NCBI GenBank assembly: GCA_944390125.1
Contig: CALXOX010000001.1
Coordinates: forward strand, 120,427-184,426
Source: an uncultured Alphaproteobacteria bacterium
Lineage (GTDB): Bacteria > Pseudomonadota > Alphaproteobacteria > Rs-D84
DNA: 64,000 nt
Reading direction: 5' to 3'
The position numbers were made by a program. Position 1 is the stretch's first letter; every line of letters begins with the position of its first letter. Shown piece after piece: positions 39,001-42,000 of the stretch.

Positions 39001-42000
39001 ATCGATTACTCCTTTTTGTTTCCGCCCCAGAAAACCGGGGATTTGTTAGAGACGCCGCACCCTAAAATTTCTTTCAGTAGCACGGATTACTTTTGCTTAG
39101 ACTGTCCAAAAAATAAAATGCGAAAAATCTGAGCCAATACACTCTGACCTTCTAAAAACTTTTCTTTTTTATTTTTCTTATTTTTCATCTAAACGCCCCT
39201 GACACCAACTGGTGTCCACAGCGAGTATTGTGCTATGAACACCGGCCGACGTCAAGATTTTTATTATTTGTATGGGTCCTCATACTTTTTAGCCAATTCA
39301 GCAATATTTTCTGGTGGCCAACCTGGGACTTCCATACCCAAGCTCAAGCCCATAGCTTCCAATTGAACTTTAATTTCATTCAAAGACTTACGGCCAAAGT
39401 TTGGTGTTTTCAACATATCTGCTTCTGTCTTCTGAACCAATTCACCCAACCAATTGATTTTGTCGTTCTTCAAGCAGTTATTTGCACGAACCGACAATTC
39501 CAATTCATCAACATGCTTTAACAATTTTGGATCAAAAGGCAATGCATCTTTTGCTTTTTCTTCTTCAGCAGGAGCATTGATTTGGGCAGGATCTTCAAAG
39601 TTGATAAAGACAACCAGCTGATCTGTCAAAATACGCGCTGCCAAAGCAATTGCATCTTCTGGAGAAACAGAACCGTTTGTTTTAACCGTCATTTCCAATT
39701 TATCATAATCTGTACTCTGACCAACACGAGTTTCTGAAACTTCAGTTGCAACATTCAAAATTGGTGAGAAGATTGAATCAACTGGAATTACACCTAATGG
39801 CAAACCATCAGCATGTGCAGACGCTGGAACATATCCACGACCTGTTGATAAAGTAATTTCCATATCCAAACTTGCACCATTATCCAATGTGCAAATTTCA
39901 GCGTCCTTATTCATAACTTCGACACCACCCGTTGTTTCAATCATACCAGCAGTAACAACAGCAGGCCCTTTTACTTTCAAAGTTGCTTTGTGCTGACCTT
40001 CCGTCAAAGCTTTGAAATAAACGCCTTTCAAATTCAAGATAATATCTGTAACGTCTTCACGAACACCAGAAATACTAGAAAATTCATGCTGAACGCCATC
40101 AATTTTAATATAAATTGGTGCACAACCCTGCAAAGAAGACAACAGAACACGACGTAATGCTGTTCCCAATGTCAAACCAAAACCTTTTTCCAACGGTTCT
40201 GCGATTAAAGTTGCTTGATTTGGATTATGTTCATCAACTTTGATGTTCAGTTTTTTGGGTTTAATTAAAGTAACCCAGTTTTTTTCAATCATAAAATCCT
40301 CCATTAGGCTTAGTTTATCATTTTCGCCAATGCGGCTATATCGGAATTACTCCAACACGCCCGCGAATTCTATAACACAAAACAACAAAAGTCAAATAAT
40401 TATTGCCCTTTCAGAACCATTTTTAATCGAATTTAAAAAGTTGACAACTAATAAATATTGTACTATTGTGAATAAAAACCAAAAGGGATTACTAATGAAA
40501 AAAATATTTTTATTGTGTTTGTTTGCTTGCGCAATTGGTACATGCATAAGTGCATATGCCGGCATTTACACAGAGACAGAAACAATCAATACATATGAAA
40601 AAATTTACATTGATACAGTAACGTATTCTGATGCTGCATATACCGCACCGGCACCAAAACCATTACCAAAACCAGCTGCCAAACCGGCACCTTGCCGTTA
40701 CGCTTCTTCATTAGAAGTTGCACGTGGTTGTGACTGCGCAAAACCAGCAGCAAAAAAATTAGCACCGGTTCGTGTAAAAACATACACAGAAGTAATAGAT
40801 CATTATCAAGTATATGAACCAGTTGTAACATATAAACCAGCTGGGACATATGCAACTCGTCGTTTTATAGACGCGCCCAATCCACATTGTGGTACATGCG
40901 CACGATAATAAAAATTTAAACGCCTTATTACTGAGGCGTTTGTTTTTAAAAATAAAAAATCTGCCGATTGGCAGATTTTTATTGTCATTAAACACGACGT
41001 ACTTTTTTCGGGCGGCAGCCGTTGTGAGGAATACGTGTCGTATCTGTAATAGACTGAACGATCAACCCAGCATTCGCCAAACCGCGGACAGCAGATTCAC
41101 GACCCTGACCAATACCACGCATCAAAACATCAACTGTCTTCATCCCCATTTCAGCAACTTTTTTGCCAACCGCATCTGCAACAACAGTTGCGGCGTATGG
41201 AGTAGATTTCTTTGCGCCCTTAAAGTTATTCGCACCAGCTGTTGCCCAAGTCAAAACAGCACCAGACTGGTCTGTGATTGTAATACGTGTATTGTTATTT
41301 GTCGCGACCACGTGTGCTATGCCATGTGATACTTTCTTTACGACTTTCTTTTTAGCTTTTGTAACTGCCATTTTATATTTACCTTTTTAGATGTCTTCAA
41401 TTAACTATCGTGTTAATCTCTACCTGTGTTAAATTATTTACCCTTTACTGCGGAACCAGCAACCACGACGCGCTTACCCTTACGAGTACGAGCATTTGTC
41501 TGAGTACGCTGACCACGAACTGGTAAACGGTTACGATGACGAATACCACGATACGTTTTCAAATCCTGCAAACGTTTGATATTCATTGCGACTTCACGAC
41601 GGACGTCACCTTCTACTTTAAAGTTTTGTTCGATATAATTCGAAATTTTAACAACATCCTCGTCAGTCAAGTCTTTTGCGCGCAAACCGTCTTTCAACTT
41701 CAAAGCCTGGCAAACCTGAGCCGCTTTGGCTGGGCCAATACCATGAATGTACTGCAGCGCGATTTCGATACGCTTTTCTGTCGGAATGTTAACACCTGCT
41801 ATACGTGCCATTTTTCATTTTCCTTTTTATTTAACTGCGGTACGCAAAACTCGCGAACCGATACCAAACACATCCTAACCTAGTACCTAAGTTCTGATGA
41901 GTATTTTATTTTGCTGCACTATTTTATACAAAATGCCGCAAAAGTCAAATTTTTGTTTTCGTTTTCCGCTGATATTCTTGTAAATATCTTTAACGGAAAC

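Follow-up and report, generated by a model that had tools for sequence, protein, structure and literature searches.

Genomic context of the rpsK-rpoA junction

We analyzed the alpha operon of an uncultured gut alphaproteobacterium (Candidatus Enterousia) of the order Rs-D84, and in particular the interval between its rpsK and rpoA genes, which holds a small gene on the opposite strand. The operon lies in a 64,000-nucleotide stretch of genome assembly GCA_944390125.1 (contig CALXOX010000001.1, positions 120,427 to 184,426 of the forward strand), and this whole stretch is called the window hereafter. The genes of the operon are all encoded on the minus strand and were identified by Pfam matches. 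The secY gene (41990-43306) is followed by rpsM for S13 (41434-41811; Ribosomal_S13, E = 3.8e-30) and rpsK for S11 (40988-41371; Ribosomal_S11, E = 3.9e-38), which are the first and last genes of an upstream half-operon. Next come rpoA (39264-40292; RNA_pol_A_bac, RNA_pol_L, and RNA_pol_A_CTD) and rplQ for L17 (38490-39002; Ribosomal_L17, E = 3.2e-35), the second gene of the rpoA unit. The longest open reading frame (ORF) for rpoA reaches 40304, and its second ATG, at 40292, is the conserved start. This ATG has the sequence GGAGG ahead of it at 40298-40302 and opens the stretch ATGATTGAAAAA that is kept across all relatives aligned.

Measured from this conserved start, the gap between rpsK and rpoA is 695 bp (683 bp from the longest rpoA ORF), in good agreement with the value of about 680 bp given in an original prediction made from the letters of the window. 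Nowhere else in the window is the str-S10-spc-alpha array interrupted, and the other gaps between 41990 and 58110 measure 15-134 nt. The genes of a single-unit alpha operon would be contiguous on one strand with nothing between them, and here a gene on the opposite strand occupies the gap and rpsD is absent from the alpha cluster. Likewise, a single transcript would have neither a terminator nor a promoter between rpsK and rpoA. Besides the plus-strand gene and a promoter-like site ahead of it, the gap contains two putative terminator hairpins (40955-40980 and 40917-40942) and a candidate rpoA promoter (40395-40367), and these last three elements are all conserved in relatives.

Relatives were collected by a scan with the RpoA protein, taking one genome per species. 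This yielded 75 Enterousia-like loci (RpoA 76-99% identical) that are labelled Candidatus Enterousia or uncultured Alphaproteobacteria and derive from animal guts, as well as five Rhodospirillales loci (L076-L080, ~61% identity) that serve as outgroups. A gene table was then compiled by tblastn of secY, rpsM, rpsK, the small protein, rpoA, and rplQ over these loci, and an independent sample was provided by 120 metagenome contigs. All of the relatives are metagenome-assembled genomes. Enterousia belongs to the uncultured order Rs-D84, and its reduced genomes measure ~0.75-1.0 Mb (PMC12306168).

Predicted terminators and promoters at the junction

The hairpin closest to rpsK (H2; 40955-40980) begins 7 nt past the rpsK stop codon on the minus strand and has an 11-bp stem, AAAAATCTGCCAATCGGCAGATTTTT, that is followed by TATTTTT on that strand. 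Because it is flanked by an A-run and a T-run, it was scored as terminator-like in both directions by a consensus scan. The other hairpin (H1; 40917-40942, plus strand) is the putative terminator of the small gene. It is formed by AAACGCCTTATTACTGAGGCGTTTG and is followed by TTTTT, lies 9 nt past the stop codon of that gene, has 11 pairs, and also scores as terminator-like on both strands. A 101-nt stretch that includes H1 and H2 folds far better than shuffled sequences (z = -6.1 and -6.2 on the two strands). Each hairpin thus presents what would be expected of an intrinsic terminator, namely a stem-loop with a U-tract located just past a stop codon.

Comparable elements recur among the relatives. 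Orthologues of the small gene are followed by a hairpin and a T-run no more than 110 nt past the stop codon in 27 of 31 loci, and the same combination is present after rpsK in nearly every Enterousia-like locus, including three with a short gap (L008, L027, and L055). No terminator was found after rpsK in L073, in L074, or in the five Rhodospirillales outgroups. H2 is the same hairpin as that located after rpsK in the closest relative (L002), and it appears to be the orthologue of the rpsK terminator in relatives. These data fit well with the original prediction, in which two hairpin terminators were proposed to follow the small gene, with the second being bidirectional and able to end the rpsK transcript as well.

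The small gene is preceded by a predicted promoter with the sequence TTGACA-17-TATTGT (40441-40469, plus strand), whereas the predicted rpoA promoter, TTGACT-17-TAGAAT, faces the other way (40395-40367, minus strand). Both sites match 10 of 12 consensus positions and carry the hexamers and 17-bp spacer of sigma-70-type promoters. They are arranged back to back, with their -35 boxes 46 bp apart and an AT-rich spacer between them. The first site had been proposed previously, and it had also been argued that rpoA would need a promoter of its own, for which no site was given; the second site is a good candidate for this role. Our consensus scan returned 16 promoter-like sites, where 9.3 +/- 2.5 are expected in AT-rich DNA. 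Consensus matches alone are weak evidence, and the promoters and terminators described here gain their weight because they are conserved.

In an alignment of 21 sequences over the ~200 bp that separate the small gene from rpoA, both promoters emerge as footprints. For the small gene, the -35 sequence GTTGACAA and the sequence TTGT(A/C)CTAT at -10 are conserved in these 21 loci, and the flanks vary. For rpoA, the footprint TTGAC(T/A)-17-TA(T/G)AAAT keeps exactly the same position throughout the 21 loci with the divergent arrangement. Furthermore, a regular-expression scan recovered the rpoA promoter in most of the 75 Enterousia-like loci, at a distance of ~70-78 nt from the ATG and irrespective of the upstream content. 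The same scan found the promoter to be missing from L073, L074, and the Rhodospirillales outgroups. A peculiar arrangement is seen in L039 (2630-2700), in which a hairpin with a T-run (AAAAATCGCTTCGCGATTTTTGT) is located directly upstream of the conserved rpoA leader block described below, with no recognisable promoter between the two. This hairpin could be an attenuator-like variant, or the promoter of L039 could be located further upstream.

A conserved putative leader upstream of rpoA

The predicted rpoA leader is ~68 nt long. It consists of a 5'-proximal hairpin (40334-40361, minus strand), which is supported by the predicted fold and by covariation, and then a 22-nt invariant block, GGCGAAAATGATAAACTAAGCC (40307-40328, minus strand), which ends 14 nt before the ATG and just upstream of the Shine-Dalgarno sequence. 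The hairpin is variable in sequence, and RNAalifold applied to 65 sequences returned four consensus pairs, all with compensatory changes. In the alignment, 44 cells are changed on both sides of a pair, compared to 18.7 +/- 5.1 in shuffles, and none of 500 shuffles reached 44. Pairing is found in 91% of cells, compared to 11-46% when the partners are slid.

The block, with the consensus TGG(C/T)GAAAAT(G/A)ATAAACTAAGC(C/T), is found in 73 of the 75 Enterousia-like loci at 15-21 nt from the rpoA ATG when up to three mismatches are allowed, and it occurs once in the 64-kb window. Its exact 21-mer was also sought in the metagenome contigs, where an rpoA start lies 13-18 nt downstream in 118 of 119 assessable cases. 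The block is closed by only three base pairs, which show G-C/G-U variation, and it is mostly an unpaired loop of 16 nt. L074 carries the block without the terminator or the promoter. No Rfam family matches the rpoA leader. A three-codon upstream ORF within the block (ATG ATA AAC TAA) was considered and rejected, given that ATA replaces ATG in half of the species.

Variability of the interval among relatives

The distance between rpsK and rpoA is 28-205 bp in six Enterousia-like loci and 500-4300 bp in ~40 others, and it is 101-197 bp in the outgroups. Among the metagenome contigs, the gaps range from 113 to 5644 bp, with only 4 of 63 measuring 210 bp or less. At least 11 species have no rpsK in the 5 kb upstream of rpoA, and the secY-rpsM-rpsK block of three species is inverted and located downstream of rplQ. 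Genomes in which rpoA-rplQ is detached in this manner retain the same promoter and leader. Because rpsK is distant or inverted downstream in these genomes, rpoA must be independent of the rpsM promoter there. Even sister species can differ wholly. For example, L011 has a gap of 754 bp that contains the small gene, and no rpsK is present within 6 kb in its sisters L012 and L017.

The loci with short gaps are particularly informative. In L008, L027, and L055, the terminator, the promoter, and the leader are packed into 113-205 bp, and a standard scanner confirmed this for L055. The smallest version of the terminator-promoter-leader module takes up ~110 bp. L073 has a gap of 28 bp and none of these elements. 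A neighbour-joining tree of RpoA places first L073 and then L074 outside every locus with the module. The simplest interpretation is that the genes were contiguous at the outset, that the leader block arose next, that the terminator and promoter followed, and that insertions and rearrangements came last.

The original prediction saw the small gene as the cause of the interruption. This part does not stand, since L008, L027, and L055 have the split between terminator and promoter and lack an inserted gene. The small gene would therefore be an occupant of a pre-existing break rather than its cause. Comparison of the interval in relatives, which had been suggested along with that prediction, establishes that the break is common to nearly all Enterousia-like loci and thus extends well beyond this genome.

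The small gene and its product

The small gene (40495-40908, plus strand) codes for a protein of 137 amino acids when translated from an internal ATG at 40495. A Shine-Dalgarno-like AAGGGA, read from the sequence, is located at 40483-40488, and its GGA is kept in position in the 21-sequence alignment. The gene occurs only once in the window, as it does in every locus. Its ratio of nonsynonymous to synonymous substitution rates (dN/dS) is 0.07-0.25 relative to seven orthologues for which dS could be computed (0.95-2.3); eight orthologues were compared, and the synonymous sites of L011 were too saturated to be used. Judging from this conservation and purifying selection, the small ORF proposed earlier as a gene for a signal-peptide protein is evidently real.

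The protein has three distinct parts. Residues 1-22 (40495-40560) resemble a signal peptide that begins with MKKIFLLCLFACAIGTCISAYA, with cleavage predicted ahead of GIYTETET. By inspection, it is composed of MKK, the stretch IFLLCLFACAIGTCI, and S-A-Y-A|G, as is typical of substrates of signal peptidase I, and AlphaFold places a helix at residues 2-18. The family alignment likewise has a conserved signal peptide with the consensus MKK, a hydrophobic stretch, and the cleavage motif A-x-A|SDG, and YTETET is conserved near the mature N-terminus. Residues 52-66 (40648-40692) form a linker, PAPKPLPKPAAKPAP, that is rich in Pro and Lys. The original prediction described this segment as a repeat. 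The stretch is indeed present; it is a low-complexity linker and a lineage-specific version of a segment that varies between relatives, with no conserved repeat. Finally, residues 91-135 (40765-40899) constitute a near-invariant C-terminal core, PVRVKTYTEVIDHYQVYxPVxxYxPxGxxxxRR, which ends in CxxC-x-x. This core is invariant at the protein level over 120 sequences with 41-85% identity.

Three cysteines of the protein are conserved (C79, C132, and C135). The cysteines in the signal peptide (C8, C12, and C17) are not conserved and are missing in many homologues, and the reading of the protein as a lipoprotein processed by signal peptidase II was therefore rejected. Rather, it is predicted to be Sec-exported, cleaved by signal peptidase I, and ~115 amino acids long in its mature form.

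A protein search retrieved 150 homologues at E <= 0.01, all of which are unnamed or annotated as "hypothetical". An exhaustive hidden Markov model search of 1.84 billion representative proteins recovered only 48 clusters, with members of 50-175 amino acids in all but one case. The sole outlier is a weak partial match (E = 1.4e-4) in a protein of 912 amino acids, and this profile search found no bridge to any known family. Matches to Pfam, NCBIfam, PHROG, and PADLOC were all sub-threshold and involved the signal peptide or low-complexity parts, and a profile search against the PDB gave chance matches only (E >= 0.2). Thus, the small protein appears to represent an orphan family that is restricted to one clade.

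AlphaFold was run on the full protein with 34 sequences and on the mature protein with 120 sequences. The resulting models consist of the signal helix and an extended chain, with a predicted local distance difference test score (pLDDT) of 54 and 66 and a predicted template modelling score (pTM) of 0.17 and 0.14, respectively. The mature protein is rich in Thr, Tyr, and Val, and the models point to an extended, non-globular chain. Its most likely location is the periplasm or the envelope, and it possibly folds on a partner. The Cys-rich envelope proteins of chlamydiae, of which one is small and others are large, offer a resemblance by analogy only; no homology was found, and none is claimed.

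Other occupants of the junction

In at least 33 of the 75 species-level loci, the small gene is located in the rpsK-rpoA interval or adjoins rpoA, in either orientation. It is divergent from rpoA in the subclade of the window and in several others, with 191-259 bp between the start codons. In other loci, it is on the same strand just after rpsK and is followed by two genes for Cys-rich proteins. Distant members of the family (P0040 and P0051) also reside in the interval. The small gene has thus long resided at the junction, where it has been repeatedly inverted, displaced, and lost.

A recurrent layout on one strand in L053, L058, L059, L061, and L069 (~2650-5900) is rpsK, the small gene, C5 (~660 amino acids), C2 (~245 amino acids), and rpoA. 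This suggests that the small protein may work together with the larger Cys-rich proteins C5 and C2. Clustering of ORFs revealed several recurrent families in the interval (C2, C3, C5, C6, and C7) whose members are signal-peptide proteins with 4-9% cysteine, including C7, which has Ephrin-receptor-like Cys repeats. An NT5C-like nucleotidase and an alpha/beta hydrolase are also recurrent, and a Pfam scan recognised no mobility genes among the recurrent families.

The window itself carries an 807-amino-acid ORF (35022-37445, minus strand) downstream of rplQ that encodes a Cys-rich protein with a signal peptide and has no Pfam or NCBIfam match. A further interval family, C4, is homologous to this ORF (38% identity, E = 2e-170; L015 2226-5105), and homologues of the ORF are located upstream of rpoA in other species. 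Because the same family lies downstream of rplQ here and upstream of rpoA elsewhere, the same cargo families flank rpoA-rplQ on either side.

A proposed division of the alpha operon and its alternatives

We consider it likely, with a probability of roughly 80%, that the alpha operon has been split into two autonomous transcription units, that the junction between these units is permissive, and that the small gene is its occupant. In Candidatus Enterousia and its close relatives in Rs-D84, the first unit would comprise a promoter, rpsM, rpsK, and an intrinsic terminator. The second unit would comprise a sigma-70-type promoter, the ~68-nt leader, rpoA, rplQ, and a terminator. Because transcription would no longer need to cross from rpsK to rpoA, the junction could become permissive and evolve fast. 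It would gather lineage-specific genes, mostly for Cys-containing proteins with signal peptides, and it would be a place where the cluster breaks and inverts. In the genome of the window, the sole occupant would be a monocistronic gene on the opposite strand that has its own promoter, Shine-Dalgarno sequence, and terminator. The gene identities, the conservation of the signals, the covariation in the leader hairpin, the purifying selection, and the variability of the interval are direct observations, whereas the actual transcript ends, the export of the small protein, and the order of evolutionary events are inferred. The finding is an altered architecture of a known operon, accompanied by a new orphan family of secreted proteins and a candidate new leader RNA.

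Several points weigh against this proposal. The terminators could be leaky, such that part of the rpoA mRNA still originates at the rpsM promoter. Matches to promoter and terminator patterns are common by chance in AT-rich DNA. Misassembly at repeats is possible in metagenome-assembled genomes, yet the arrangements recur in independent assemblies. The loci with short gaps are nested in the clade and could reflect secondary deletions, and so a split that preceded its cargo is not the sole order of events that can be envisioned. Moreover, one distant member of the small-protein family (P0075) is encoded elsewhere in its genome. With regard to the protein, the signal peptide call relies on visual inspection and the AlphaFold helix, and the low pLDDT values provide no confident fold, which makes its envelope role a guess.

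Perhaps the small gene and rpoA instead form a functional pair that is co-regulated by the ~200-bp region with back-to-back promoters, such that growth-rate-coupled secretion keeps the gene at this site. The closeness of the two -35 boxes across an AT-rich spacer would suit such coupling, as would the retention of the divergent arrangement (191-259 bp) by 19 GTDB loci whose small proteins have diverged to 30-87% identity. The arrangement also persists in L013, L014, and L016, where rpsK is not nearby. Nevertheless, we regard this explanation as unlikely. At least eight loci (L053, L058, L059, L061, L069, and others) have the gene on the same strand by rpsK and up to 3 kb from rpoA. In addition, the gene is missing from the interval in many species, the distant family member noted above is found elsewhere, and the promoter and leader of rpoA are unchanged under different neighbours. 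Coupling of the small gene to rpoA is thus possible in the subclades that retain back-to-back promoters, and it is not general.

The main rival, more doubtful still, is that the alpha operon continues to function as one unit, with hairpins that are weak or regulated, with read-through from the rpsM promoter supplying most of the rpoA-rplQ mRNA, and with only a minor contribution from the rpoA promoter. On the minus strand, the T-run of H2 (AAATTTTTAT) is modest, and the presence of the leader block in L074 implies that this element can work inside a read-through transcript. However, the stem of H2 is strong, is followed by TATTTTT, and lies 7 nt past the rpsK stop codon, and members of the clade consistently have a terminator behind rpsK. 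The rpoA promoter is likewise a sharp phylogenetic footprint, and it is retained together with the leader in the species in which rpsK is either beyond 5 kb or inverted downstream. Furthermore, read-through in the window would meet transcription of the small gene head-on.

There is very little chance that the content of the gap is a recent horizontal or mobile insertion peculiar to this genome. The G+C content of positions 40001-41000 is slightly lower than that of the flanking windows (0.358 versus ~0.40-0.42), and homologues of the small gene are confined to one clade. In contrast, there are no repeats flanking the gap, no tRNA in or near it, no mobility gene, and no PHROG or PADLOC match. 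Orthologues are also found in this interval in species so divergent that synonymous sites have reached saturation (dS from 0.95 to above 2). A mobile element or genomic island as the origin of the insert was rejected, given that repeats, tRNAs, and mobility genes were not found.

Finally, the notion that the small ORF is not a gene and that the interval is merely a long regulatory spacer, as could be imagined because AlphaFold predicts no folded domain and databases offer no annotation, can be dismissed given the low dN/dS values, the C-terminal core that is invariant across 120 sequences, and the conservation of the start codon, Shine-Dalgarno sequence, signal peptide, and terminator.

A further and more tentative possibility is that the leader block and hairpin constitute a new autoregulatory leader RNA. 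The ligand of this RNA might be L17, the alpha subunit, or some other factor, and the RNA would give rpoA-rplQ its own feedback control. Perhaps the gain of this module freed the junction between rpsK and rpoA, which then turned into a hotspot where secreted Cys-rich envelope proteins diversify in these gut bacteria with reduced genomes. The small protein would be one conserved component of this envelope set.

Comparison with known systems

In Escherichia coli, the alpha operon rpsM-rpsK-rpsD-rpoA-rplQ yields one transcript, and S4 represses translation at the rpsM leader. The cluster in the window is similar in gene order and strand (except for rpsD) and in its location directly after secY. 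A candidate for the S4-binding pseudoknot leader Alpha_RBS (RF00140) is located at the rpsM start. The match to this model (41779-41864, minus strand) scores 37.3 bits, compared to a gathering score of 38, and much of this score derives from the conserved rpsM coding start. The corresponding matches in L001, L009, and L006 score 39.8-44.7 bits and exceed the gathering score. An element of this type at rpsM is unexpected outside Gammaproteobacteria, and again the conserved coding start supplies part of the score. Unlike the E. coli operon, the cluster in the window lacks rpsD, has a putative terminator after rpsK, carries an opposite-strand gene between rpsK and rpoA, and equips rpoA with its own predicted promoter and with a leader that is unrelated to any Rfam family.

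A closer counterpart is the alphaproteobacterial order secY-adk-rpsM-rpsK-rpoA-rplQ, as represented by the outgroups L076-L080. These loci also lack rpsD in the cluster, and the order is otherwise the same. They differ from the window in having no rpsK terminator, no rpoA promoter footprint, and no leader block. They also differ in the spacing between secY and rpsM, which is ~750-880 bp in the outgroups and thus has room for adk, whereas the window has 178 nt (41812-41989) without adk, infA, or rpmJ.

The leader RNAs of ribosomal protein genes (r-leaders) provide another point of reference. S4 leaders precede rpsD-rpoA-rplQ in Bacteroidia and Flavobacteria, and an L17 leader precedes rplQ (Eckert and Weinberg 2020, PMC7247131). 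The known r-leaders near these genes are thus located before rpsM, rpsD, or rplQ, and not before rpoA (PMC7247131). Like r-leaders, the rpoA leader is a conserved element of the 5' untranslated region that is situated just upstream of the Shine-Dalgarno sequence of an operon encoding L17. Its hairpin covaries, and like most r-leaders it is confined to a single lineage. Unlike r-leaders, it precedes rpoA and matches no Rfam model, and its most conserved part is a loop. As a candidate r-leader, it has the expected position and conservation and a hairpin that covaries; the block itself has only a 3-bp stem with G-C/G-U variation.

Genes are reported to be inserted at the same junction, the rps11-rpoA spacer, in some green-algal plastid genomes, whose cluster shares its ancestry with the bacterial one. 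These insertions belong to organelle genomes and have other content, with no demonstrated promoter-leader module. We regard this resemblance as a lead only.

Among 204 genomes surveyed, rearrangements mostly spared the operons, breaks within operons were rare, and spc and alpha were joined in all cases (PMC8046335). The joined cassette is common (PMC9514032). Our literature search found no description of a bacterial split between rpsK and rpoA or of operon structure in Enterousia. The str-S10-spc-alpha array is a textbook example of a gene order that resists change, and an uncultured order shows the opposite at one junction, where turnover is faster than the divergence of species. This offers a natural experiment on the forces that hold such operons together. 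It also provides a candidate new leader RNA for the expression of RNA polymerase alpha and L17, along with a defined set of orphan secreted proteins for asking how gut bacteria with genomes of ~0.75-1 Mb interact with their surroundings. The weight of these findings would be greater if the leader proves to be autoregulatory or if the junction is dedicated to diversifying envelope proteins.

Additional features of the window

A putative terminator hairpin, AAAACCGCCTTTTGGCGGTTTT (38467-38488, both strands), is located directly past the rplQ stop codon and is followed by TTTTTAT on the minus strand. It is shared with a convergent gene (37604-38464, plus strand) that is DUF3419-like and methyltransferase-like, for which the hairpin could act in the opposite direction. 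A DUF3419-like gene is also present just past rplQ in L084 and L085, and a family of ORFs with a similar N-terminus (c16) is found upstream of rpoA in L015 and L072. L083 has no rplQ within 3 kb after rpoA.

The spacer between rpoA and rplQ (39003-39263, minus strand) is 261 nt long and contains a promoter-like site at 39255-39227. It has no Rfam match, including none to the L17 leader. In relatives, this spacer ranges from 105 to ~640 nt, and it reaches 4.7 kb in L039 and shrinks to 6 nt in one outgroup. Upstream of rpsM, the consensus scan identified another promoter-like sequence, TTGACT-16-TAAAAT (41948-41921, minus strand).

Last, two adjoining ORFs (59300-59878 and 60083-60847, both on the minus strand) are located upstream of the rpsL end of the str operon and have near-identical signal peptides (MKKILLTSLLAVFAVSGAQAA and MKKLVLTSLLAVFAATGANAA). 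These ORFs probably encode paralogous envelope proteins.

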